Assembly: GCF_013122565.1 (NCBI RefSeq)
Contig: NZ_CP053258.1
Length of the DNA stretch: 64,000 nt
Reading direction: 5' to 3' (one strand)
From: Escherichia coli
GTDB taxonomy: Bacteria; Pseudomonadota; Gammaproteobacteria; Enterobacterales; Enterobacteriaceae
The notes beneath the pieces are model-generated. The model was not told the origin of the DNA and searched no databases. It worked only from the letters and a program-made list of their open reading frames with translations. Positions 7,130 to 59,380 of this stretch are shown here, in pieces. The first letter of the stretch is position 1. Each line of letters begins with the position of its first letter. A program made the translations under genes and the position numbers.

Positions 7130-7843
7130 TCAGAGCGGATTCTTTTTGTTGCGAATCAGGTTGAGGCTTTCAACCGCAATAGAGAAGAACATCGCGAAGT
7201 AGATGTAACCTTTCGGTACGTGGATGTCGAAACTTTCCAGAATCAGGGTAAAGCCCACCAGAATCAGGAAAGAGAGCGCCAGCATTTTTACCGAAGGATG
7301 GCGTTCGACAAAATCACCAATCGAGCGCGCGGCGAACATCATCACGCCTACGGCAATCACCACGGCGGCCATCATAATAAACAGGTGATCTGACAGACCC
7401 ACAGCGGTAATCACCGAGTCGAGGCTGAAGATAATATCCAGCAGCATAATCTGCACGATAGCGCCGAGGAATGATGAAACGCGTGTTTTCAGCCCTTCTT
7501 CTTCACCTTCAATGGATTCGTGGATTTCCTTGCTGGCTTTCCAGATAAGGAACAAGCCACCCAGAAGCAGAATCAAATCACGGGCAGAAATTTCCTGACT
7601 GAATATTGTAAAAAGCGGATTTGTCAGGCGCGTAACCCAGGCGATTGATGCCAGCAGCGCCAGACGCATAACCATGGCTCCCGCCAACCCCAGACGGCGC
7701 GCATGAGCACGTTGTGCTGTGGGAAGCTTTGCCACCACCAGAGAAAGGAAAATAATATTGTCGATCCCAAGAACGATCTCTAGCAGCGTCAGCGTACCGA
7801 GCGCAAGCCAGGCGTTAGGATCGGTTATCCATGCAAATAACAT
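7130..7843 (-). CDS. ygdQ: Inner membrane protein, UPF0053/TerC family
   Basis: 237 aa polytopic membrane protein; synteny between ygdR and mutH. Confidence 0.85.
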
Positions 7844-7911: not shown

Positions 7912-8601
7912 CTACTGGATCAGAAAATGACGGGCCAGTAGCGCACTGGTGAAATTCTTCTTCAAATAAAAGCCGCGCGGCAGCGTCAGAATCCGTTCGC
8001 CCCGGGCACCAATGGCTTCGGTAAGCGCTTTCGCATTCGCTGCTTTCGGTCGTATCTGTAAATATTCCCCGTGACGAGCGGTAATCCGCTCAACCTGACC
8101 GAGTACAATCATATCCATTAATTCCTCCCAGTCTTCGCGTAGCTGCCGGTCTTCCTCTTCATTCGGGCTCCACAGCAACGGTGATCCTACGCGACGCTGC
8201 GCCAGCGGGATGCTGCGCTCGCCTTCAACCGGTATCCACAGCACGCGTTTGAGCTTGTGGCGCACGTGGCTGGTTTCCCAGGTTACTCCGCTATTGCCCG
8301 TTAACGGGGCAACACAAACGAATGTTGTTTCCAGCGGACGACCAAGACTATCCACAGGGATAGTTTTAAGTTCCACGCCCAGAGCAGCAAAATCTTGCTC
8401 AGGTTTACTCCCTGCGCTGGCACCTAGCCAGATCTCCAGTAACACGCCAATCCAGCCCTTATCGCGTTTTAAATTCTCTGGCGTAACGAGCCCGGCAAGT
8501 GCCGCCAGTTCTCCCAATGTATAACCAGAAAGTTGCTGTGCTTGCGCTAACAACTGTTCTTCAGTTTCGGGAGGAGAGAGCAGTGGGCGAGGTTGGGACA
8601 T
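7912..8601 (-). CDS. mutH: Methyl-directed mismatch repair endonuclease MutH
   Basis: 229 aa; N-terminus [33 protein letters not shown] recognised as MutH. Confidence 0.93.
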
Positions 8602-8779
8602 GTCACAATACCTTGGTTAAAAAACAAACAGCAATTATGTGCCGAATATTCGCAGTGTAACTTTTTCCACATGCGTTGTTCAATTCTCTGATTTATATTG
8701 CTTTTTAGGTTGCCGGTAATCGAGTTGCGCAACACTGCAACGGGTTTTCCAAATCTGGTCACTGAAAATAAACAGGATC

Positions 8780-9145
8780 TTACACCATGTTATCCACAGA
8801 AAGCTGGGATAACTGTGAAAAACTTCCACTACTGTTTCCATTTACAGCCTTGACGTGCGACGAAACTCCAGTTTTTAGTGGTTCAGTGCTTAACTTAGTG
8901 GCACATTCTGTGGATAAATACGGCATTGGTTGATCTTTCGCCAACCCGTAAATGAGAGGTGTGACCTGGGTCACGAATTACTCTTTTTCATTACTAAAAT
9001 TACATGTAATGCATTGACTTATAATGAATATTTTAAAATGTCTATATCGGGCTTATTCAGAATGCTCCGGGTTTTCCCGTAGTAATTCCGTAGTTCTTCA
9101 CAACTCTATCCACAGAAAAGGTGAATAAAAACGGCTATCCACCCC
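8780..9145. promoter_or_regulatory. DARS2-like DnaA-reactivating sequence (DnaA-box cluster in the mutH-rppH intergenic region)
   Basis: Perfect DnaA boxes TTATCCACA at 8790-8798 (+) and TGTGGATAA at 8909-8917 (-), plus degenerate boxes CTATCCACA 9106-9114 and CTATCCACC 9135-9143, in an AT-rich 680-bp non-coding gap; DARS2 is reported at the mutH-proximal intergenic region in K-12. Confidence 0.55.
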
Positions 9146-9285
9146 TTCCTCTGTTTATAACTCTGCACATAACTGTGAGTTATTCAATTGTTATTAGTGT
9201 GTAATGCCCTGCAGAGAGTGGTTTACCGTCTTCCTGGAGTATGAAACAATCATTCGTATATAAAGCTTTATTTTGAGGTAGTCCG

Positions 9286-9816
9286 GTGATTGATGACGAT
9301 GGCTACCGCCCAAACGTAGGTATCGTGATTTGTAATCGCCAGGGGCAGGTAATGTGGGCCCGGCGATTTGGTCAGCACTCCTGGCAATTTCCGCAAGGCG
9401 GAATCAACCCCGGAGAATCCGCAGAGCAGGCGATGTACCGTGAATTGTTTGAAGAAGTAGGATTAAGCCGTAAAGACGTTCGAATCCTTGCTTCAACGCG
9501 TAACTGGTTGCGCTACAAATTACCGAAACGTTTGGTGCGTTGGGACACGAAGCCGGTTTGTATCGGCCAAAAACAAAAATGGTTTCTCTTGCAGCTGGTG
9601 AGCGGCGATGCAGAAATCAATATGCAAACCAGCAGTACACCAGAGTTTGACGGCTGGCGATGGGTAAGTTACTGGTATCCGGTCAGACAGGTGGTGTCAT
9701 TTAAACGTGATGTCTACCGTAGGGTAATGAAAGAGTTCGCGAGTGTGGTGATGTCATTGCAGGAAAATACGCCAAAACCACAAAACGCATCTGCTTATCG
9801 ACGTAAAAGAGGTTAA
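9286..9816 (+). CDS. rppH: RNA pyrophosphohydrolase (Nudix)
   Basis: 176 aa; Nudix box [23 protein letters not shown] visible. Confidence 0.93.
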
Positions 9817-9828
9817 GTCACGCCAATT

Positions 9829-12075
9829 ATGCTCACTCGCCTGCGCGAAATAGTCGAAAAGGTAGCCAGCGCACCACGCCTGAATGAGGCGTTAAATATT
9901 CTGGTTACCGACATCTGTCTTGCGATGGATACCGAGGTCTGTTCGGTCTACCTGGCCGATCATGATCGACGTTGTTACTACCTGATGGCGACCCGGGGGC
10001 TGAAAAAACCACGCGGTCGCACTGTAACGCTCGCGTTTGATGAAGGGATCGTCGGCCTGGTTGGCAGGCTGGCGGAACCGATAAACCTTGCAGATGCGCA
10101 AAAGCACCCCAGCTTCAAATACATCCCCTCCGTAAAAGAAGAACGTTTCCGCGCATTTTTAGGCGTACCAATTATTCAACGTCGCCAGTTGCTTGGTGTA
10201 CTGGTGGTACAGCAACGAGAGTTGCGCCAGTATGACGAAAGTGAAGAATCCTTCCTGGTGACGCTTGCCACCCAGATGGCAGCTATTCTTTCTCAGTCGC
10301 AGTTGACTGCCTTGTTTGGGCAATATCGCCAGACGCGAATCCGCGCATTACCGGCAGCACCTGGTGTGGCGATTGCCGAAGGCTGGCAGGATGCCACGTT
10401 ACCTTTAATGGAACAGGTGTATCAGGCATCAACGCTGGATCCGGCTCTGGAACGCGAACGACTGACCGGGGCGCTGGAAGAAGCGGCAAACGAGTTTCGC
10501 CGCTACAGCAAACGCTTTGCCGCCGGTGCACAAAAAGAAACGGCGGCTATTTTCGATCTTTACTCGCACCTGCTTTCGGACACCCGGCTGCGTCGCGAAT
10601 TGTTTGCCGAGGTTGATAAAGGCTCGGTGGCAGAGTGGGCGGTAAAAACGGTCATTGAAAAATTTGCCGAACAGTTTGCCGCGCTAAGCGATAACTATCT
10701 CAAAGAGCGGGCTGGCGATTTACGTGCGCTGGGTCAGCGATTGCTGTTTCATCTTGATGACGCTAATCAAGGGCCGAACGCCTGGCCGGAACGTTTCATT
10801 CTGGTGGCAGATGAACTGTCAGCGACAACTCTTGCTGAGCTGCCCCAGGATCGCTTAGTGGGTGTTGTCGTGCGCGATGGCGCAGCCAACTCCCATGCTG
10901 CAATCATGGTACGTGCGCTGGGGATCCCTACCGTGATGGGCGCGGATATTCAGCCTTCGGTGCTGCATCGTCGGACGCTGATCGTCGATGGTTATCGCGG
11001 TGAATTGCTGGTCGATCCGGAGCCGGTACTGCTGCAAGAATATCAGCGGCTAATTAGTGAAGAGATTGAGCTTAGCCGTCTGGCGGAAGATGACGTCAAT
11101 TTACCCGCGCAGTTAAAAAGTGGCGAGCGTATAAAAGTCATGCTCAATGCCGGTTTAAGCCCGGAACATGAAGAAAAACTGGGCAGCCGTATTGATGGCA
11201 TCGGTCTTTATCGCACTGAAATCCCATTCATGCTGCAAAGTGGTTTTCCGTCGGAAGAAGAACAGGTGGCGCAGTATCAGGGGATGCTGCAAATGTTCAA
11301 TGATAAACCCGTCACCTTGCGTACACTGGATGTCGGAGCAGATAAGCAGCTGCCTTACATGCCGATCAGCGAAGAGAATCCATGCCTGGGTTGGCGTGGG
11401 ATTCGCATTACGCTCGATCAGCCGGAGATCTTCTTGATCCAGGTGCGGGCGATGCTGCGTGCTAATGCCGCTACGGGCAACCTGAATATTCTGTTGCCGA
11501 TGGTCACCAGCCTCGATGAAGTTGACGAAGCACGCCGCCTGATTGAACGTGCCGGACGTGAAGTCGAGGAGATGATCGGTTACGAAATTCCCAAACCACG
11601 TATCGGCATCATGCTGGAAGTGCCGTCAATGGTATTTATGCTGCCGCATCTGGCAAAGCGGGTCGATTTCATCTCTGTTGGCACCAACGATCTGACTCAA
11701 TACATTCTGGCCGTTGATCGCAACAATACCCGGGTGGCGAACATTTATGACAGTCTTCATCCTGCAATGTTACGAGCTCTGGCAATGATCGCCCGGGAAG
11801 CGGAAATACATGGAATCGATCTCCGTTTGTGCGGTGAAATGGCGGGCGATCCCATGTGCGTGGCAATCCTCATTGGGCTTGGGTATCGCCATCTGTCTAT
11901 GAACGGACGTTCTGTAGCGCGGGTAAAATACCTGCTGCGGCGCATTGATTATGCCGAAGCAGAAAATCTTGCGCAGCGTAGTCTGGAAGCGCAACTGGCG
12001 ACCGAAGTTCGCCATCAGGTTGCAGCCTTTATGGAGCGTCGCGGCATGGGCGGGCTGATTCGCGGAGGGTTATAG
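9829..12075 (+). CDS. ptsP: Phosphoenolpyruvate-protein phosphotransferase EI-Ntr (GAF domain plus Enzyme I)
   Basis: 748 aa; 13 nt after rppH (operon); Enzyme I-like C-terminal region. Confidence 0.92.
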   Translation: MLTRLREIVEKVASAPRLNEALNILVTDICLAMDTEVCSVYLADHDRRCYYLMATRGLKKPRGRTVTLAFDEGIVGLVGRLAEPINLADAQKHPSFKYIPSVKEERFRAFLGVPIIQRRQLLGVLVVQQRELRQYDESEESFLVTLATQMAAILSQSQLTALFGQYRQTRIRALPAAPGVAIAEGWQDATLPLMEQVYQASTLDPALERERLTGALEEAANEFRRYSKRFAAGAQKETAAIFDLYSHLLSDTRLRRELFAEVDKGSVAEWAVKTVIEKFAEQFAALSDNYLKERAGDLRALGQRLLFHLDDANQGPNAWPERFILVADELSATTLAELPQDRLVGVVVRDGAANSHAAIMVRALGIPTVMGADIQPSVLHRRTLIVDGYRGELLVDPEPVLLQEYQRLISEEIELSRLAEDDVNLPAQLKSGERIKVMLNAGLSPEHEEKLGSRIDGIGLYRTEIPFMLQSGFPSEEEQVAQYQGMLQMFNDKPVTLRTLDVGADKQLPYMPISEENPCLGWRGIRITLDQPEIFLIQVRAMLRANAATGNLNILLPMVTSLDEVDEARRLIERAGREVEEMIGYEIPKPRIGIMLEVPSMVFMLPHLAKRVDFISVGTNDLTQYILAVDRNNTRVANIYDSLHPAMLRALAMIAREAEIHGIDLRLCGEMAGDPMCVAILIGLGYRHLSMNGRSVARVKYLLRRIDYAEAENLAQRSLEAQLATEVRHQVAAFMERRGMGGLIRGGL

Positions 12076-19379: not shown

Positions 19380-22268
19380 ATGCCCCGCAGCACCTGGTTT
19401 AAAGCATTATTGTTGTTTGTTGCCCTCTGGGCACCCTTAAGTCAGGCAGAAACGGGATGGCAGCCGATTCAGGAAACCATCCGTAAAAGTGATAAAGATA
19501 ACCGCCAGTATCAGGCTATACGTCTGGATAACGGTATGGTGGTCTTGCTGGTTTCTGATCCGCAGGCAGTTAAATCGCTATCGGCGCTGGTGGTGCCCGT
19601 TGGGTCGCTGGAAGATCCCGAGGCGTACCAGGGGCTGGCACATTACCTTGAACATATGAGTCTGATGGGGTCGAAAAAGTACCCGCAGGCTGACAGTCTG
19701 GCCGAATATCTCAAAATGCACGGCGGTAGTCACAATGCCAGCACTGCGCCGTATCGCACGGCTTTCTATCTGGAAGTTGAGAACGACGCCTTGCCCGGTG
19801 CGGTAGACCGCCTGGCCGATGCTATTGCAGAACCCTTGCTCGACAAGAAATACGCCGAACGTGAGCGTAATGCAGTGAACGCTGAATTAACCATGGCGCG
19901 TACGCGTGACGGGATGCGCATGGCACAGGTCAGCGCAGAAACCATTAACCCGGCACACCCCGGTTCAAAGTTTTCTGGTGGTAACCTCGAAACTTTAAGC
20001 GATAAACCTGGTAATCCGGTGCAGCAGGCGCTGAAAGATTTCCACGAGAAGTACTATTCCGCCAATTTGATGAAGGCGGTTATTTACAGTAATAAACCGC
20101 TGCCGGAGTTGGCAAAAATGGCGGCGGACACCTTTGGTCGCGTGCCGAACAAAGAGAGCAAAAAACCGGAAATCACCGTGCCGGTAGTCACCGACGCGCA
20201 AAAGGGCATTATCATTCATTACGTCCCAGCGCTGCCGCGTAAAGTTCTGCGCGTTGAGTTTCGCATCGATAACAACTCAGCGAAGTTCCGCAGTAAAACG
20301 GATGAATTGATTACCTATCTGATTGGTAATCGCAGCCCAGGTACACTTTCTGACTGGCTGCAAAAGCAGGGATTAGTTGAGGGCATTAGCGCCAACTCCG
20401 ATCCTATCGTCAACGGCAACAGCGGTGTATTAGCGATCTCTGCGTCTTTAACCGATAAAGGTCTGGCGAATCGCGATCAGGTTGTGGCGGCCATTTTTAG
20501 CTACCTCAATCTGTTACGTGAAAAAGGGATCGATAAACAATACTTTGATGAACTGGCGAATGTGCTGGATATCGACTTCCGTTATCCGTCAATCACCCGT
20601 GATATGGATTACGTCGAATGGCTGGCAGATACCATGATTCGCGTTCCGGTTGAGCATACGCTGGATGCAGTCAATATTGCCGATCGGTACGATGCTAAAG
20701 CAGTAAAAGAACGTCTGGCGATGATGACGCCGCAGAATGCGCGTATCTGGTATATCAGCCCGAAAGAGCCGCACAATAAAACGGCTTATTTTGTCGATGC
20801 GCCGTATCAGGTCGATAAAATCAGCGAACAAACTTTCGCTGACTGGCAGCAAAAAGCTGCCAATATTGCGCTCTCCTTACCGGAGCTTAACCCCTATATT
20901 CCTGACGATTTCTCGCTGATTAAGTCAGAGAAGAAATATGACCATCCAGAGCTGATTGTTGATGAGTCGAATCTGCGCGTGGTGTATGCGCCAAGCCGTT
21001 ATTTTTCCAGCGAACCCAAAGCTGATGTCAGCCTGATTTTGCGTAATCCGAAAGCCATGGACAGCGCCCGCAATCAGGTGATGTTTGCGCTCAATGATTA
21101 TCTCGCAGGGCTGGCGCTTGATCAGTTAAGCAACCAGGCGTCGGTTGGTGGCATAAGTTTTTCCACCAACGCTAACAACGGCCTTATGGTTAATGCTAAT
21201 GGTTACACCCAGCGTCTGCCGCAGCTGTTCCAGGCATTGCTGGAGGGCTACTTTAGCTATACCGCCACGGAAGATCAGCTTCAGCAGGCAAAGTCCTGGT
21301 ATAACCAGATGATGGATTCCGCAGAAAAGGGCAAAGCGTTCGAGCAGGCGATTATGCCCGCGCAGATGCTCTCGCAAGTGCCGTACTTCTCGCGAGATGA
21401 ACGGCGCAAAATTTTGCCCTCCATTACGTTGAAAGAGGTACTGGCCTATCGCGACGCCTTAAAATCAGGGGCTCGACCAGAGTTTATGGTTATCGGCAAT
21501 ATGACCGAGGACCAGGCAACAACGCTGGCACGCGATGTGCAAAAACAGTTGGGCGCTGATGGTTCAGAGTGGTGTCGTAACAAAGATGTCGTGGTCGATA
21601 AAAAACAATCCGTCATCTTTGAAAAAGCTGGTAACAGCACCGACTCCGCACTGGCAGCGGTATTTGTACCGACTGGCTACGATGAATACACCAGCTCAGC
21701 CTATAGCTCTCTGTTGGGGCAGATCGTACAGCCGTGGTTCTACAATCAGTTGCGTACCGAAGAACAGTTGGGCTATGCCGTGTTTGCGTTTCCAATGAGC
21801 GTGGGGCGTCAGTGGGGCATGGGCTTCCTTTTGCAAAGCAATGATAAACAGCCTTCATTCTTGTGGGAGCGTTACAAGGCGTTTTTCCCAACCGCAGAGG
21901 CAAAATTGCGGGCGATGAAGCCAGAAGAGTTTGCGCAAATCCAGCAGGCGGTAATTACCCAGATGCTGCAGGCACCGCAAACGCTCGGCGAAGAAGCATC
22001 GAAGTTAAGTAAAGATTTCGATCGCGGCAATATGCGCTTCGATTCGCGTGATAAAATCGTGGCCCAGATAAAACTGCTGACGCCGCAAAAACTTGCTGAT
22101 TTCTTCCATCAGGCGGTGGTCGAGCCGCAAGGCATGGCTATTCTGTCGCAGATTTCCGGCAGCCAGAACGGGAAAGCCGAATATGTGCATCCTGAAGGCT
22201 GGAAAGTGTGGGAGAACGTCAGCGCGTTGCAGCAAACAATGCCCCTGATGAGTGAAAAGAATGAGTGA
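19380..22268 (+). CDS. ptrA: Protease III (pitrilysin), M16 zinc metalloprotease
   Basis: 962 aa; signal peptide; inverted zinc motif HYLEHM present. Confidence 0.93.
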   Translation: MPRSTWFKALLLFVALWAPLSQAETGWQPIQETIRKSDKDNRQYQAIRLDNGMVVLLVSDPQAVKSLSALVVPVGSLEDPEAYQGLAHYLEHMSLMGSKKYPQADSLAEYLKMHGGSHNASTAPYRTAFYLEVENDALPGAVDRLADAIAEPLLDKKYAERERNAVNAELTMARTRDGMRMAQVSAETINPAHPGSKFSGGNLETLSDKPGNPVQQALKDFHEKYYSANLMKAVIYSNKPLPELAKMAADTFGRVPNKESKKPEITVPVVTDAQKGIIIHYVPALPRKVLRVEFRIDNNSAKFRSKTDELITYLIGNRSPGTLSDWLQKQGLVEGISANSDPIVNGNSGVLAISASLTDKGLANRDQVVAAIFSYLNLLREKGIDKQYFDELANVLDIDFRYPSITRDMDYVEWLADTMIRVPVEHTLDAVNIADRYDAKAVKERLAMMTPQNARIWYISPKEPHNKTAYFVDAPYQVDKISEQTFADWQQKAANIALSLPELNPYIPDDFSLIKSEKKYDHPELIVDESNLRVVYAPSRYFSSEPKADVSLILRNPKAMDSARNQVMFALNDYLAGLALDQLSNQASVGGISFSTNANNGLMVNANGYTQRLPQLFQALLEGYFSYTATEDQLQQAKSWYNQMMDSAEKGKAFEQAIMPAQMLSQVPYFSRDERRKILPSITLKEVLAYRDALKSGARPEFMVIGNMTEDQATTLARDVQKQLGADGSEWCRNKDVVVDKKQSVIFEKAGNSTDSALAAVFVPTGYDEYTSSAYSSLLGQIVQPWFYNQLRTEEQLGYAVFAFPMSVGRQWGMGFLLQSNDKQPSFLWERYKAFFPTAEAKLRAMKPEEFAQIQQAVITQMLQAPQTLGEEASKLSKDFDRGNMRFDSRDKIVAQIKLLTPQKLADFFHQAVVEPQGMAILSQISGSQNGKAEYVHPEGWKVWENVSALQQTMPLMSEKNE

Positions 22269-31621: not shown

Positions 31622-33202
31622 ATGAAACAAAAGAAAGCCTGGAGTTTTTTTCAGAGCCTGGGGAAGGCATTTATGTATCCCATCGCTCTGTTAAGTGTAT
31701 GTGGTATGATGTTAGGGCTGGGAAGTGGTTTAGCCAGCGATGATATGGCAAAATTAATTCCAGTGTTGGCTATTCCGTTAATTAAAACCATACTTGATTT
31801 TATTGTTAGCCTTGGTTTGTTTGCCTTCGTTAATTTACCTGTATTGTTTGCGATAGCTATACCTTTGGGATTATTAAAAGAGAAAGATGATAAAGCCTAT
31901 GGCGCTTTTTCTGGCTTAATTGGCTTTATGGCGATGCATCTTGGAACGAACTTTTATCTTAAACAGCACGACTTATTGGTAGCTGCTGACCAAATGTCGA
32001 CACATGGGCAAACCATCATACTCGGGATCCAGTCATACAATACCAGCGTGTTGGGTGGGATTGTGGCAGGGTTATTAGTCGCCAGCATGTATAAAAAGAT
32101 CGTTAACTTACGTATTCCTGAATCATTAGGGTTTTATAGTGGCCCACGCCTGGTGCCTATCATTACACTGATTGTGATGAGTGGATTTGGTCTGATCATT
32201 CCTTTTATCTGGCCGCCATTTTTCAATCTTTTCATGCTCATTGGTCACTGGATTTCAACTTCCGGTCCTGTTGGTTATTTCTTCTATGCTGTTGCCGAAC
32301 GCGTGACGATACCTTTTGGCTTAAATCACTTGGTGACATCAGTTTTCCGCTTTACCCCAATCGGCGGATCGGCAGTGATTGGCGGTGAAGAGTATTACGG
32401 CACCCTGAACATGTTTATGGCATACGTCAAAGAGAATGCGGTCATTCCGCTGGATTTGGCGGGGAAAATGGAGCAGGGCAAACTGATGATTCAGTATGGT
32501 CTGGCTGGAGCCGCGCTGGCGATGTATCGCACTGCTCATGCTCAAAACAGAAGGGCTATCAAAGCATTGCTGATTTCCGGTGTGCTCACGGTAATTATTG
32601 GCGGCGTCAGCGAGCCGATTGAATTTCTGTTCTTATTTGTCAGCCCGCTGTTGTTTGTCTTCCATGCCTTTATGAATGGATTGGCTAACATGGTTCTGCC
32701 ATATATGGGCGTGAAGATGGGCTTTACTGGCGATCTGATTCAATTTATTAGCTTTGGTGTCTTACGTGGCACAAGAACGGGATGGCCATTAGCGGTATGT
32801 GTTGAAGTGGCTTATTTCTTCATTTATTACTTTGTGTTCCGTTGGACCATTCTCAAATTTAACCTGATGACTGTAGGCCGTGAAGAGTCCAGTCCTGTCA
32901 CGCTGAACGCTCACGAAGAAACTGCAATAGCTAACATCCCAGTTCATGATAAATCAGAGTTGCAGGCAGCGGAGCAAATGGTTAAGGCTCTGGGTGGTAA
33001 AGAAAATATTAAATCACTGGATAATTGTGTAACTCGTTTGCGTTTAACTATCGCGGATATGGGATTGATAGATGAGGCTGCAATAAAAAGGGCCGGAGGA
33101 ATTGCGGTTGTGAAACTTGATCAAAATACCTTACAAGTCATTATCGGTACAAAAGTCATCGCACTACGTCGGGATATGGATAACTACATGGGGATATGTT
33201 GA
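31622..33202 (+). CDS. PTS EIICB component, glucose/maltose (MalX-like) family
   Basis: 526 aa; N-terminus FFQSLGKAFMYPIALLSVCGMMLGLGS and C-terminal EIIB motif SLDNCVTRLRL closely resemble MalX/PtsG as I remember them; no EIIA domain. Confidence 0.8.
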   Translation: MKQKKAWSFFQSLGKAFMYPIALLSVCGMMLGLGSGLASDDMAKLIPVLAIPLIKTILDFIVSLGLFAFVNLPVLFAIAIPLGLLKEKDDKAYGAFSGLIGFMAMHLGTNFYLKQHDLLVAADQMSTHGQTIILGIQSYNTSVLGGIVAGLLVASMYKKIVNLRIPESLGFYSGPRLVPIITLIVMSGFGLIIPFIWPPFFNLFMLIGHWISTSGPVGYFFYAVAERVTIPFGLNHLVTSVFRFTPIGGSAVIGGEEYYGTLNMFMAYVKENAVIPLDLAGKMEQGKLMIQYGLAGAALAMYRTAHAQNRRAIKALLISGVLTVIIGGVSEPIEFLFLFVSPLLFVFHAFMNGLANMVLPYMGVKMGFTGDLIQFISFGVLRGTRTGWPLAVCVEVAYFFIYYFVFRWTILKFNLMTVGREESSPVTLNAHEETAIANIPVHDKSELQAAEQMVKALGGKENIKSLDNCVTRLRLTIADMGLIDEAAIKRAGGIAVVKLDQNTLQVIIGTKVIALRRDMDNYMGIC

Positions 33203-34410
33203 TGGATATTTTTAATACCTCAATTTCTCGTAAAGGAACATATTGCACACAATGGGACTTTTGTGAAGACAGATTTGGTGTAAAAGATGTATTACCATTC
33301 TCTATTTCAGATATGGATCTTCCGATACCGGAAGCTATCATCAGAACATTAAAAAAACGTCTGGAACACCCGATTTTAGGGTACAGTCGTTGGCAGCATG
33401 ATGACTATCTGAATTCGATAGTCAATTGGTATCATCAACAATATAAAACAGAGATTCAACCAGAATGGATCACCTATAGCCCAAGCGTGATGTATTCAAT
33501 ATCTAAGGCAATAGAAATATTGACATTGAATGGAGATAATATTCTCATTTTCACGCCTGTTTATAACGCATTTTATGATGTGATTAAGCATAATGGTCGA
33601 AACATGCTAACAACCTCTTTGATGAAAGAAAATGGGAGAGGCTACGTTATCAACTGGCAAGACTTTGAGCTTAAAATTAAAAGCGCGAAGATGGTGTTAT
33701 TATGTAATCCTCATAACCCGACAGGAACGGTCTGGTCGGAAGACGATCTTCACAGAATCGCAGCATGCTGTGCAAGGCATAATATTTGGTTATGTTCAGA
33801 TGAAATACATAGTGATTTTGTTTTTAATCATAGTTTCACGTCAGCGCTAACAATAAAAGATGACAAAGTGGTGGTGTTTAATTCGATTTCGAAAACATTT
33901 AATGTTCCTGCGCTAACCGGATCATATATGATTTCAACTGACGATAATTTTAATCATAAGTTCAGAACGATATCGAGGTATCGCGATTTTGTAAACTCCC
34001 CATCAGTACTGAATGTAATTGCGACCATTGTTGCCTATAATGAATGTGAAGAATGGTTAAAGTCATTAAAGGTACATATTGCCTCTAACATTCAATTTAC
34101 CTTGCAGTATTTAAATGAAAATATTCCGGAATTGATCGTATGGCCAGCTGAGGGCTGCTATTTTTCGTGGGTTGATTGCTCGGCCCTTGGTTATCCCTTT
34201 GATAAATTTTACCGTCGATTAATTAACGAAGGGAGAGTAGGTATTATGGCGGGGCATGTTTATGGTACTGAAGGAGAGGGCTATCTGCGTCTTAATCTGG
34301 CCTGCAGTCGAGAAAAATTATATATGGGGCTTGCGCGCCTTGCGAGTGTAATTAAAAATATTAATCAGGAAAAAGAAAATGAACAATACGGATCTTATCC
34401 ATCTTATTAA
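33202..34410 (+). CDS. PLP-dependent C-S lyase / aminotransferase class I-II, MalY/PatB-like
   Basis: N-terminus GTYCTQWDF..DRFG..DVLPFSISDMD closely parallels MalY (GTWCTQWDY..DRFG..LLPFTISDMD); start taken at ATG 33202 (TGATG overlap with the PTS stop, GGGGA 7 nt upstream); alternative ATG at 33196. Confidence 0.78.
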   Translation: MDIFNTSISRKGTYCTQWDFCEDRFGVKDVLPFSISDMDLPIPEAIIRTLKKRLEHPILGYSRWQHDDYLNSIVNWYHQQYKTEIQPEWITYSPSVMYSISKAIEILTLNGDNILIFTPVYNAFYDVIKHNGRNMLTTSLMKENGRGYVINWQDFELKIKSAKMVLLCNPHNPTGTVWSEDDLHRIAACCARHNIWLCSDEIHSDFVFNHSFTSALTIKDDKVVVFNSISKTFNVPALTGSYMISTDDNFNHKFRTISRYRDFVNSPSVLNVIATIVAYNECEEWLKSLKVHIASNIQFTLQYLNENIPELIVWPAEGCYFSWVDCSALGYPFDKFYRRLINEGRVGIMAGHVYGTEGEGYLRLNLACSREKLYMGLARLASVIKNINQEKENEQYGSYPSY

Positions 34411-36062: not shown

Positions 36063-36139
<77 letters not shown>

Positions 36140-36357
36140 CCACCCCGCGTCCGTGGATGCGCACTATACTCCGCTCGCGTTTTCATGCAACCTTTTTTTT
36201 ACCCCGATCACGGTTCTGGCATGATTTTGAACAAAAACAAATCACTAAAGCCTATTTTTTGTGCAAAATTTGCGTCAGGGAGAGGCTGCTCATTTCATTA
36301 AACGCGGCGGTTTGTTATCTTCGTTGCGCCTTATTTTTTAACCTGAAGAAGAGAACA

Positions 36358-37543: not shown

Positions 37544-37641
37544 GCCGGATGCGGCGTGAACGCCTTATCCGGCCTACAAATCATGCAAATCCAAAATATT
37601 GCAGGAGTTATGTAGGCCTGATAAGCGTAGCGCATCAGGCA
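37544..37641. repeat. BIME: two inverted REP elements
   Basis: GCCGGATGCGGCGTGAACGCCTTATCCGGCCTACA (37544-37578) and the inverted copy TGTAGGCCTGATAAGCGTAGCGCATCAGGCA (37611-37641). Confidence 0.75.
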
Positions 37642-40634: not shown

Positions 40635-40840
40635 AAAAAAAAGCACCGCAATTAGGCGGTGCTACATTAATCACTATGGACAGACAGGGTAAATGTACAG
40701 GAAGTGAAAAAAGGTAGCTTTGCTACCATGGTCTGAATCGCAGACCAATTGCAAACACAACAACACAACATCACAACCGTAAGCCAAAAGTTCACCAGAA
40801 CACGCATTCCGATAAAACTTTTCGTTCCGGCTCAGGAAGT
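40635..40840 (-). ncRNA. gcvB: GcvB small RNA
   Basis: Minus-strand read begins ACTTCCTGAGCCGGAACGAAAAGTTTTATCGG and ends GCACCGCCTAATTGCGGTGC plus U-run; includes the GT-rich stretch TGTTGTGTTGTTGTGTT; 206 nt, divergent from gcvA. Confidence 0.88.
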
Positions 40841-59011: not shown

Positions 59012-59380
59012 GTCGACAGGGAGTCAGACAACGAAGTGAACATCAGGATGATGACACTTCTGAAGGACACACCAGGATGGTGTTTCAGGGAAAGGCTTCT
59101 GGATGAAGCGAAGAGGATGACGCAGGACGCGTTAAAGGACACCTCCAGGATGGAGAATGAGAACCGGTCAGGATGATCCGGTGGGTCAGGAAGGCCAGGG
59201 ACACTTCAGGATGAAGTATCACATCGGGGTGGTGTGAGCAGGAAGCAATAGTTCAGGATGAACGATTGGCCGCAAGGCCAGAGGAAAAGTTGTCAAGGAT
59301 GAGCAGGGAGCAACAAAAGTAGCTGGAATGCTGCGAAACGAACCGGGAGCACTGTGAATACAGTGCTCCCTTTTTTTATT
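59012..59380 (+). ncRNA. csrB: CsrB small RNA (CsrA-sequestering)
   Basis: About 369 nt with roughly 20 GGA motifs (CAGGATG, AGGACA and similar) and a 3' terminator GGGAGCACTGTGAATACAGTGCTCCC plus T-run; between syd and yqcC as in K-12; the 5' end is approximate within about 10 nt. Confidence 0.88.

Follow-up and report, generated by a model that had tools for sequence, protein, structure and literature searches.

The original DARS paper, reportedly that of Fujimitsu et al. in 2009, dealt with DARS2 of Escherichia coli K-12. Reactivation of DnaA by the K-12 DARS2 sequence has been shown both in vitro and in vivo (PMC4245941), and so have the release of ADP from DnaA in dependence on IHF and Fis and the in vivo occupancy of the site by DnaA, IHF, and Fis (PMC4245941, PMC8682772, PMC11724364). 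The fragment that was cloned and assayed is 455 bp long (PMC4245941, Kasho et al. 2014), and wild-type DARS2 has been placed ∼650 bp away from the spacer that separates ptsP and rppH (PMC5010248). Dissection on plasmids indicated that the “right half” of the fragment is dispensable on a moderate-copy plasmid; the DeltaRight construct (pOA67) still stimulates initiation from a plasmid, and DnaA boxes IV to VI are dispensable for that stimulation (PMC4245941).

Three other sites invite comparison with DARS2. DARS1, in the bioD-uvrB intergenic region, has the same core order (box I, 5 bp, an opposed box II, 3 bp, box III); its core reads TTATCCACT-ATTCC-TGTGGATAA-CCA-TGTGTATTA, and that of DARS2, written from box I, reads TTATTCACC-TTTTC-TGTGGATAG-AGT-TGTGAAGAA. 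Box II of DARS1 is perfect, and no activator protein is required there, whereas each core box of DARS2 carries 1 mismatch and DnaA binding is weaker; DARS2 needs IHF, Fis, and supercoiling by way of a ∼200-bp regulatory arm, and DARS1 has no such arm (PMC4245941, PMC11724364). Like DARS2, datA is non-coding and consists of clustered DnaA boxes plus an indispensable IHF site, which IHF occupies according to cell cycle stage, but it drives the opposite reaction, ATP hydrolysis on DnaA (PMC11724364), and DARS2, unlike datA, needs an opposed box pair and Fis (PMC4245941, PMC6868365, PMC11724364). The third site, oriC, resembles DARS2 in combining DnaA boxes of graded affinity with an IHF site and Fis sites; it differs in having unwinding 13-mers and key boxes that are head-to-tail, whereas the key boxes of DARS2 are opposed.

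The mutH-rppH gap and the published DARS2 fragment

We analyzed a 64-kb stretch of E. coli DNA (the window), in which OmrA/B, GcvB, and CsrB serve as landmarks, in the order that we take to be expected around 64 min of the K-12 map; oriC is outside the window. The gene order of interest is mutH, gap, rppH, ptsP. An earlier note, made from the sequence, had drawn attention to DnaA boxes in an AT-rich gap of ∼680 bp and proposed that they mark DARS2. The gap (8602-9285) measures 684 bp, with a GC content of 38.9% versus 50.7% for the whole window. It almost certainly holds DARS2, the non-coding site that recharges ADP-DnaA to ATP-DnaA, and what we report is the re-identification of an already known, well-studied locus. 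RefSeq annotates ygdT alone in the gap, with no DARS2 feature. The larger features are these:

7912-8601, minus strand: mutH, bordering the gap
9286-9816, plus strand: rppH (ygdP/nudH), bordering the gap
9829-12075, plus strand: ptsP, the gene after rppH
8787-8933, plus strand: ygdT, a 48-codon open reading frame (ORF) in RefSeq that spans box VI to FBS2-3
8697-9151, minus strand: full DARS2 fragment, 455 bp, with its core (“left”) end at 9151 and its “right” end at 8697
8919-9151, minus strand: minimal DARS2, as in the DeltaRight construct (PMC4245941)

The published primers for the 455-bp fragment (PMC4245941, Supplemental Table S1) mapped to 8697-8715 (plus strand) and 9133-9151 (minus strand), and the interval that they bound is exactly 455 bp. 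Within it, 453 of 455 positions are identical to K-12 DARS2. Both substitutions lie outside the named sites: one replaces C by T at 8824, in the interval from box VI to box V, and the other replaces G by T at 9020, within the 3 bp that separate the IHF 13-mers, where the T allele is rare (the exact 59-mer occurs in 3 of 4,257 matching complete E. coli genomes). Boxes I to VI, the IBS1-2 13-mers, FBS1, the FBS2-3 21-mer, and FBS6 are all identical in the two strains. Mapping of the published primers also placed the core at 9094-9128, and the comparison with K-12, a kind of check that the earlier note had suggested, bears out the proposed identity. The position of the ptsP-rppH spacer (9817-9828) relative to a core near 9110 agrees with the ∼650 bp of PMC5010248.

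The gap sequence is present in 5,424 of 5,426 complete E. coli genomes, and over the 106 bp of 9085-9190, which include the core, identity reaches 99% or more in 5,422 of the 5,424 genomes having a match. Scanning 8400-9500 against Rfam with E values up to 1 produced no hit, and no known RNA gene therefore accounts for the conservation. No sequence evidence contradicted the DARS2 reading, and given the near-identity to K-12 the locus would be expected to function as DARS2 in this strain. The individual sites are as follows:

9094-9128: DARS2 core, TTCTTCACA-ACT-CTATCCACA-GAAAA-GGTGAATAA, which is box III, 3 bp, box II, 5 bp, box I
9120-9128, minus strand: core DnaA box I, TTATTCACC, 1 mismatch, opposed to box II
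9106-9114, plus strand: core DnaA box II, CTATCCACA, 1 mismatch, third of the boxes noted earlier
9094-9102, plus strand: core DnaA box III, TTCTTCACA, 1 mismatch, in head-to-tail arrangement with box II, from which 3 bp separate it
9053-9061, plus strand: DnaA box IV, TTATTCAGA, 1 mismatch, bracketed by primers Ksh-30 and Ksh-31
9007-9035: IHF region IBS1-2, lying between the core and the Fis sites, with 13-mers at 9007-9019 (minus strand) and 9023-9035 (plus strand), 3 bp apart
8969-8983: Fis site FBS1, GGTCACGAATTACTC, which fits GNNYANNNNNTRNNC without mismatch on either strand
8918-8938: Fis 21-mer FBS2-3, flanked by box V and identical to K-12
8909-8917, minus strand: DnaA box V, a perfect TTATCCACA (TGTGGATAA on the plus strand), second of the boxes noted earlier
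8790-8798, plus strand: DnaA box VI, a perfect TTATCCACA, first of the boxes noted earlier
8727-8741: Fis site FBS6, bracketed by the subFBS6 primers Ksh-9 and Ksh-10

Boxes V and VI both lie in a GTTATCCACAG context, which we take to be that of oriC boxes R1 and R4. The core pattern has a single match in the window (9094-9128; 0 expected), and its 9-5-9-3-9 layout is the same as that of the K-12 DARS1 core. MutH-14 and MutH-15, the inside-out primers for DeltaCore, have their ends at 9129 and 9093, so that exactly 9094-9128 is removed. In DARS, boxes I and II are opposed with a 5-bp spacer (PMC6868365); we infer the numbering of the boxes from that geometry together with a monotonic order from I to VI.

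Published primer pairs bracket the expected motif for DeltaCore, Delta21, boxes IV, V, and VI, IBS1-2, FBS2-3, and FBS6. The sole exception is Ksh-3/Ksh-4. Because Ksh-4 had no map position, the assignment of FBS1 rests on Ksh-3, which starts at 8984 and adjoins the site, and on the consensus scan. Both IBS1-2 13-mers are 1 mismatch from WATCAANNNNTTR and identical to K-12; their 3-bp separation is as stated in PMC4245941, the subIBS1-2 primers Ksh-16 and Ksh-19 bracket 9014-9028, and the PciI site (ACATGT) described beside the IBS (PMC11724364) falls at 9002-9007. At the FBS2-3 21-mer, the role of which is described in PMC4245941, the primers used for Delta21 (MutH-24 and MutH-25) have their ends at 8939 and 8917, and the subFBS2-3 primers bracket 8925-8942. 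A strict Fis consensus scan gave no exact match at FBS2-3, which is assigned from the published deletion and footprints. The primer pairs for subDnaAboxV (Ksh-32 and Ksh-33) and subDnaAboxVI (Ksh-34 and Ksh-35) bracket exactly 8909-8917 and 8790-8798. Boxes V and VI are both outside minimal DARS2, in the right half, and the papers cited here report no required role for box VI.

To gauge conservation, we compared six enterobacterial genera, Escherichia plus Enterobacter, Serratia, Yersinia, Pantoea, and Photorhabdus, among the matches listed. Mean identity was 0.62 for the gap overall and 0.87 for the island that encloses the core (9092-9132). Boxes II and III each reached 0.94, and boxes V and VI were 100% identical in the six genera. 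Box IV (0.52), FBS1 (0.52), and FBS6 (0.44) were not conserved; box IV and FBS6 are dispensable, and FBS1 is dispensable for activity (PMC4245941).

These assignments revise the earlier list of boxes. The four sites named in it are all present: perfect boxes in opposite orientation at 8790-8798 (plus strand) and 8909-8917 (minus strand), a 1-mismatch box at 9106-9114, and a 2-mismatch site at 9135-9143. The site at 9106-9114 is core box II, the only one of the four in the core where nucleotide exchange takes place, but the perfect boxes are V and VI and lie outside minimal DARS2; core boxes I and III and box IV had been missed, and neither the IHF sites at 9007-9035 nor the Fis 21-mer at 8918-8938 had been listed. 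The site at 9135-9143 (CTATCCACC) is none of the six named boxes, it is kept in the published core deletion, and with a mean identity of 0.44 in the other genera it is not conserved. Alone it carries no weight, since sites within 2 mismatches of TTWTNCACA number 1,085 in 64 kb, or ∼1 per 59 bp; it is a chance-level two-mismatch site. The consensus scans that the earlier note had suggested found the two IHF 13-mers, 1 mismatch each, and for Fis they succeeded at FBS1 but not at FBS2-3.

Mapping the steps described in PMC4245941, PMC6868365, PMC8682772, and PMC11724364 onto the sites in the window yields a proposed mechanism. Three ADP-DnaA molecules would bind the core. Two of them, on boxes I and II, which are opposed and 5 bp apart, would make head-to-head contact through their AAA+ domains, with DnaA on box III supporting the pair head-to-tail. 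IHF bound at IBS1-2 would bend the DNA sharply and bring Fis at FBS2-3 into contact with the core DnaA dimer; that contact would loosen the nucleotide pocket so that ADP leaves, and apo-DnaA would dissociate and then rebind the more abundant ATP. Rising ATP-DnaA would nucleate on the perfect box V, spread over adjacent weak boxes, and displace Fis, turning DARS2 off, in keeping with the negative feedback in which box V nucleates ATP-DnaA oligomers that evict Fis (PMC8682772). The predicted outcome is conversion of inactive ADP-DnaA to initiation-competent ATP-DnaA before each round of replication.

Conserved islands and spacing across genera

Apart from the core, the best-conserved blocks in the six genera are the following:

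8765-8815: island around box VI, AAACAGGATCTTACACC, 3 bp, GTTATCC-N11-GGATAAC, containing GATC
8836-8858: conserved island TTCCATTTACAGCCTTGACGTGC, exactly 55 bp from box VI in 6 of 6 genera
9150-9185: pair of conserved islands immediately beyond the 455-bp fragment

The island at 8765-8815 has a mean identity of 0.86 versus 0.62 for the gap. Among the matches listed (at least 120 DARS-core loci), its motif was found at mutH-rppH loci only, and the conserved flank motifs of DARS2 were absent from the DARS1 loci among those matches. Of the islands beyond the fragment, the first, TGTTTATAACT at 9152-9162, contains a 1-mismatch DnaA-box-like site in box I orientation, and the second is CTGTGAGTTAT at 9173-9183; the pair could represent additional weak DnaA sites or parts of an rppH promoter. 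The papers cited here attribute no role to the blocks at 8765-8815, 8836-8858, or 9150-9185. Outside this family, ORFs flanking a DARS-core match in Pseudomonas gave only DUF1232 and an FKBP isomerase, and those flanking a match in Legionella gave no family match.

The distances between the conserved points hardly vary. From box VI, the GGATAAC inverted partner lies at 17 bp and CAGCCTTGAC at 55 bp, both fixed across the six genera, and box V lies at 119 bp except in Yersinia, where the distance is 118 bp. A constant 197 bp separates box V from core box II in 6 of 6 genera; the intervals from box II to TGTTYATAACT (46 bp) and from TGTTYATAACT to TGTGARTTA (22 bp) are likewise invariant. For Serratia, offsets beyond box II were taken from the alignment because the pattern search matched an earlier spurious copy. 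Between the fixed points of ∼8765-9185, the DNA has diverged freely. These conserved islands with near-invariant spacing may go beyond the papers cited here.

We considered by eye whether the islands are sigma-70 promoters and dropped the idea, as no hexamer pair has conserved spacing. A promoter scan of the gap found one weak sigma-70-like site on the minus strand (8661-8634), fewer than in shuffles, and a terminator scan found two hairpin-plus-T sites; none of these sites lines up with the conserved islands.

Alternative readings and implications

The alternative that survives best, although we consider it unlikely, is that the cluster is mainly a DnaA operator or titration site, either regulating divergent mutH and rppH promoters or sequestering DnaA as datA does. 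Two perfect, high-affinity boxes, V and VI, sit 119 bp apart between divergent genes, and the islands at box VI and at 9150-9185, the latter beside the rppH leader, are conserved with no assigned DARS2 role. In addition, deletion of DARS2 reportedly alters the proteome even in slowly growing cells, where DARS2 is presumed inactive, and a SELEX peak for the RpoH holoenzyme has been recorded in the rppH-ygdT spacer. Against this, the opposed, 5-bp-spaced box I-II core defines DARS and is absent from datA and typical operators (PMC6868365, PMC11724364), and it is for this exact sequence that reactivation in K-12 was demonstrated. Nor does the locus show the datA type of arrangement, a head-to-tail array of boxes flanking a single IHF site; its essential boxes are opposed, and the activity published for the sequence is nucleotide exchange. 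Promoter evidence is confined to the single weak match described above. An operator or titration role could coexist with DARS2 activity but would not replace it.

It is very improbable that the region chiefly encodes protein, by way of ygdT (plus strand) or the 64- or 71-codon ORFs (minus strand), with the boxes incidental. RefSeq does place ygdT here in the E. coli genomes among the matches listed, and tblastn finds weak similarity in other genera. The two minus-strand ORFs listed in the earlier note, at 8547-8762 and 8780-8974, do exist, but as mechanical ORFs with no RefSeq annotation. The start codon of ygdT is absent in 4 of the 5 other genera (Enterobacter, Serratia, Yersinia, and Pantoea), its frame has in-frame stops in three (Enterobacter, Serratia, and Photorhabdus), and the 64-codon minus-strand ORF is broken by stops in at least four genera. 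Pfam and NCBIfam scans of the three ORFs gave no match. The similarity that remains is limited to the same short DNA islands (TTATCCACAG, TGGGATAAC, TTTACAGCCTTGAC, and CTGTGGATAAA) on both strands, which indicates DNA-level rather than coding conservation. A literature search for ygdT returned no functional data, and the “YgdT” nucleoid protein of Salmonella and enterohemorrhagic E. coli (EHEC) papers is evidently YdgT, a different protein. We conclude that the small ORFs, including ygdT, are not conserved as coding sequence and that ygdT is probably not a real gene; the earlier view that such ORFs are not the main function of the region stands.

The cluster of DnaA boxes is far above chance. 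Eight sites with at most 1 mismatch fall in the 455-bp DARS2 interval, compared with a window average of ∼0.8 per 455 bp; 2,000 dinucleotide-preserving shuffles of the interval gave 1.5 ± 1.2 sites, and none of them reached 8. The window contains two exact copies of TTATCCACA, both in the gap (boxes V and VI), and 4 of its 8 exact TTWTNCACA matches lie within 8663-8917. A fortuitous gathering of boxes in AT-rich intergenic DNA would draw on the low GC content of the gap, the abundance of 2-mismatch sites, and a relaxed-consensus count that is ordinary window-wide (8 observed versus 5.8 expected); the shuffles, together with boxes and spacings kept across six genera while the intervening DNA diverges, refute it, and we give it practically no weight. 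Equally negligible is a cryptic or secondary replication origin, which shares with oriC its component types (DnaA boxes, an IHF site, and Fis sites) but which we reject because the unwinding 13-mer GATCTNTTNTTTT has 0 matches with up to 2 mismatches in 8602-9285, while the core boxes have opposed orientations and do not form a head-to-tail array leading to an unwinding element, and the literature shows nucleotide exchange at DARS2, not unwinding.

The DARS2 reading thus retained concerns one of the loci by which E. coli times the replication of its chromosome, and its correct annotation is therefore useful. We suggest, tentatively and at less than even odds, that DARS2 on the chromosome exceeds the plasmid-defined minimal element in both size and rigidity of geometry, since conserved modules with fixed spacing outside that element are not explained by plasmid-based dissection. 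If so, the islands could bind further DnaA or another factor, could time the release of IHF, a step that PMC8682772 leaves to be explained, or could couple DARS2 to transcription of mutH or rppH; they may bear on how IHF is released from DARS2 and on its dependence on chromosomal context.

Placement of the published DARS2 fragment

The DARS2 oligonucleotides are tabulated in Supplementary Table S1 of Kasho et al. 2014 (PMC4245941), and the 3' portion of each primer was placed on the window. The primers that amplify the DARS2 fragment bound exactly 455 bp, and the other pairs delimit its published elements.

Elements delimited by primer pairs of PMC4245941
8697-9151: amplified fragment, exactly 455 bp (MutH-2/MutH-4)
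9094-9128: removed by the DeltaCore deletion (MutH-14/MutH-15)
8918-8938: removed by the Delta21 deletion (MutH-24/MutH-25)
9053-9061: box IV substitution, TTATTCAGA (Ksh-30/Ksh-31)
8909-8917: box V substitution, TGTGGATAA (Ksh-32/Ksh-33)
8790-8798: box VI substitution, TTATCCACA (Ksh-34/Ksh-35)
9014-9028: substitution of IHF sites IBS1-2 (Ksh-16/Ksh-19)
8925-8942: substitution of Fis sites FBS2-3 (Ksh-20/Ksh-21)
8727-8741: substitution of Fis site FBS6 (Ksh-9/Ksh-10)
8919-9151: minimal "DeltaRight" construct (MutH-4/MutH-11)

The "DnaA box I-III" deletion arms of Frimodt-Moller et al. 2015 (PMC4585315) also flank 9094-9128. As printed, both lambda-Red arms (MutH-9, 9129-9178; MutH-10, 9044-9093) match the minus strand; one was presumably printed as its complement, and the deleted interval is still 9094-9128.

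The 684-bp mutH-rppH gap (8602-9285) has matches in 5,424 of 5,426 complete E. coli genomes at 95 to 100% identity, with a GC content of 38.9% versus 50.7% window-wide. It differs from K-12 by five substitutions, without any indel; just two of the five (8824 and 9020) lie inside the 455-bp fragment, both outside the named sites. The earlier note's identification of the locus as DARS2 is borne out by the primer-bounded fragment and its near-identity to K-12. Gene order is identical in a K-12-derived record, and the gap matched no Rfam family.

Genes near the gap and RNA genes in the window
7130-7843: ygdQ, TerC family (ORF translation)
7912-8601, minus strand: MutH (ORF translation)
9286-9816, plus strand: RppH (ORF translation)
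9829-12075, plus strand: PtsP (ORF translation)
1877-2161: OmrA/OmrB (Rfam)
40635-40840: GcvB (Rfam)
59021-59380: CsrB (Rfam)

The order of OmrA/OmrB, GcvB, and CsrB presumably corresponds to the K-12 map near 64 min in reversed orientation. The other known RNA genes in the window are one tRNA (36076-36149) and ES036 (CssrF; 37577-37619).

DnaA boxes, core, and IHF and Fis sites

The four box sequences reported in the earlier note are present: TTATCCACA (8790-8798), TGTGGATAA (8909-8917), CTATCCACA (9106-9114), and CTATCCACC (9135-9143). The first two are boxes VI and V, both in the right half (the 8697 side), and the third falls in the core as putative box II. The fourth is not among the six named boxes: it is situated to the left of the core, short of the fragment's left end (9151), and is kept in DeltaCore. 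Two-mismatch sites occur about once per 59 bp in the window; this one is therefore no evidence on its own. The earlier note overlooked the IHF sites, the Fis sites, and boxes I, III, and IV, yet its interval, 8780-9145, holds all essential elements. The right half with boxes V and VI is not needed to stimulate initiation from a plasmid, and boxes IV to VI are each singly dispensable (PMC4245941). At box V, ATP-DnaA nucleates, spreads to neighboring weak boxes, and ousts Fis, turning DARS2 off (PMC8682772).

An origin-like role was rejected, as no unwinding 13-mer occurs anywhere in 8602-9285. A chance cluster was rejected on the basis of shuffles and conservation. Exact TTATCCACA occurs in the 64 kb only at the two perfect boxes (8790-8798 and 8909-8917), and four of the eight TTWTNCACA matches in the window fall in 8663-8917. 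Sites with no more than one mismatch number 8 in the 455-bp interval, compared with about 0.8 per 455 bp window-wide (111 in 64 kb), 1.5 ± 1.2 (maximum, 7) in 2,000 dinucleotide-preserving shuffles of the interval, and no more than 5 in every 455-bp window outside the locus. Because it exceeds the window rate, the shuffles, and the runner-up windows, we conclude that the cluster is real. The next-densest groups (21436-21890 and 33112-33587; 4 to 5 sites each with at most one mismatch) are probably due to chance; the strict-consensus TTATCCACA box is absent from the runner-up windows among those listed.

The interval delimited by the DeltaCore primers, 9094-9128, reads TTCTTCACA-ACT-CTATCCACA-GAAAA-GGTGAATAA, three DnaA boxes with one mismatch each; 9120-9128 is inverted 5 bp from the middle box, and 9094-9102 is co-oriented with it at 3 bp. 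Judged by this geometry and a monotonic box order, boxes I, II, and III would be 9120-9128, 9106-9114, and 9094-9102, respectively. This matches the published layout of DARS cores, in which an opposed box I/II pair, 5 bp apart, supports a head-to-head DnaA dimer and box III is head-to-tail with box II (PMC6868365; PMC11724364). The K-12 DARS1 core in the bioD-uvrB gap, TTATCCACT-ATTCC-TGTGGATAA-CCA-TGTGTATTA, has the same 9-5-9-3-9 layout as the DARS2 core, and a pattern fitting both had one match in the window and none in 100 shuffles.

Two IHF 13-mers, 9007-9019 (minus strand) and 9023-9035 (plus strand), each differ from WATCAANNNNTTR by one mismatch and are separated by 3 bp, as also reported in PMC4245941; the PciI site reported beside the IBS (PMC11724364) is found at 9002-9007. 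At FBS1 (8969-8983), the Fis consensus is matched exactly on either strand. Scanning FBS2-3 gave no exact match to the strict Fis consensus, and its placement rests on the 21-mer deletion and substitution primers. A palindrome overlapping FBS1 (TGTGACC-TG-GGTCACG, 8960-8975), with a terminator-like hairpin score on the plus strand, is not kept in other genera. Position 9020, in the spacer between the IHF 13-mers, is T here versus G in K-12. Of 4,257 complete E. coli genomes with a match, only 3 carry the exact 59-mer 8994-9052, and two of the three come from frogs; every other match has one or more base differences.

Conservation across genera and the small ORFs

Species-representative genomes were scanned with the core pattern TTATNCAC-N6-TGTGGATA-N4-TGTG (19 specified bases), a pattern that by our own arithmetic should match about 2 times in 2 x 298 Gb at even base composition. 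At least 120 loci were found, nearly all in Gamma- or Betaproteobacteria among the matches listed; the pattern of opposed boxes 5 bp apart with TGTG 3 bp on is widespread in these classes. When loci were sorted by context (tblastn with MutH, RppH, PtsP, UvrB, and BioD), at least five had the mutH/rppH context (Pantoea L022, Enterobacter L070, Serratia L071, Yersinia L094, and Photorhabdus L108) and four among the matches listed had the bioD-uvrB (DARS1) context; further listed loci adjoin uvrB in Vibrio, Shewanella, and relatives. Many Pseudomonas species (e.g., L005, L007, L010, L017, L023, and L024) have an identical 30-mer, TTATCCACACAAATTGTGGATAACCTTGTG, and Pseudomonas loci neighbor DUF1232 and FKBP isomerase genes. 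One Legionella genome carries 8 copies; loci L055-L061 are from Legionella nagasakiensis.

Aligned across these five genera and E. coli, the six gaps have an overall column identity of 0.62, with sharp islands.

Mean column identity across six genera
9092-9132: core, 0.87
8909-8917: box V, 1.00
8928-8939: right-hand portion of FBS2-3 with its GATC, 0.83
8790-8798: box VI, 1.00
8765-8815: box VI and flanks, 0.86
8836-8858: TTCCATTTACAGCCTTGACGTGC, 0.88
9150-9165: island, 0.84
9171-9185: island, 0.86
9053-9061: box IV, not conserved, 0.52
8969-8983: FBS1, not conserved, 0.52
8727-8741: FBS6, not conserved, 0.44
9135-9143: fourth site of the earlier note, not conserved, 0.44
8663-8671: exact-consensus site, not conserved, 0.43
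8814-8822: exact-consensus site, not conserved, 0.46

Spacing is nearly constant. The GAAAA between boxes I and II is invariant; box V lies 197 bp from box II in all six genera and 119 bp from box VI (118 bp in Yersinia). TGTTYATAACT follows box II at 46 bp and TGTGARTTA 22 bp further in six genera (in Serratia as read from the alignment, the pattern search there having caught an earlier spurious copy). This fixed spacing agrees with the published finding that 5- or 10-bp shifts of IBS1-2 or FBS2-3 weaken activity (PMC4245941). Within E. coli, the 106 bp at 9085-9190 are at least 99% identical in 5,422 of 5,424 matching genomes.

Some of the conserved sequence lies outside the minimal element. 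The islands TGTTTATAACT and CTGTGAGTTAT (9150-9185), just beyond the 455-bp fragment, are kept in six genera at these fixed distances from box II (46 bp, then 22 bp), and TGTTTATAACT resembles a DnaA box with one mismatch, oriented as box I. The box VI flanks, in the "dispensable" right half, are conserved across genera to the same degree as the core; they contain AAACAGGATCTTACACC and the inverted repeat GTTATCC-N11-GGATAAC, and a distance of exactly 55 bp separates box VI from a second motif, TTTACAGCCTTGAC, in the same half (8765-8858 region).

The sole RefSeq annotation beneath the gap is ygdT (8787-8933, plus strand, 48 codons), which starts three bases ahead of box VI and ends within FBS2-3. 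Its ATG is missing in four of the five other genera, in-frame stops occur in three, and the ORF is not conserved beyond Escherichia; a 64-codon minus-strand ORF has stops in at least four. Neither ygdT nor either minus-strand ORF matched Pfam or NCBIfam. Residual "protein" similarity coincides with the same DNA islands on both strands and therefore reflects DNA-level, not coding, constraint. We accordingly reject a coding role, in line with the earlier view that the small ORFs are probably not the main function here. Listed E. coli genomes in RefSeq annotate ygdT across DARS2 and lack a DARS2 feature; the "YgdT" named in papers as an H-NS-like protein is evidently YdgT.

Mechanism and a possible second role

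The site is identified here from its sequence, and the mechanism is adopted from cited work (PMC4245941, PMC8682772, PMC6868365, PMC11724364). ADP-DnaA would bind the core, and IHF on IBS1-2, stabilized there by negative supercoiling, would bend the DNA; ADP would be let go, and apo-DnaA would then take up ATP. As its level rises, ATP-DnaA would assemble from box V and evict Fis.

In addition, boxes V and VI and the conserved islands outside the minimal element may act in titration or as an operator; this would be the most plausible secondary function. Deletion of DARS2 reportedly shifts the proteome even under conditions in which the site is expected to be inactive, and an RpoH-holoenzyme genomic SELEX peak is listed in the rppH-ygdT spacer (PMC5493296), at about 9255-9285 upstream of rppH. 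The rppH leader contains several conserved blocks; those at 9216-9231 and 9238-9253 may be part of that leader or of the rppH promoter.

The box cluster is confirmed and its interpretation as DARS2, an already known object, is supported. What remains noteworthy is that conserved modules with rigid spacing extend beyond the minimal element and that this strain carries the rare 9020 substitution within its IHF region.
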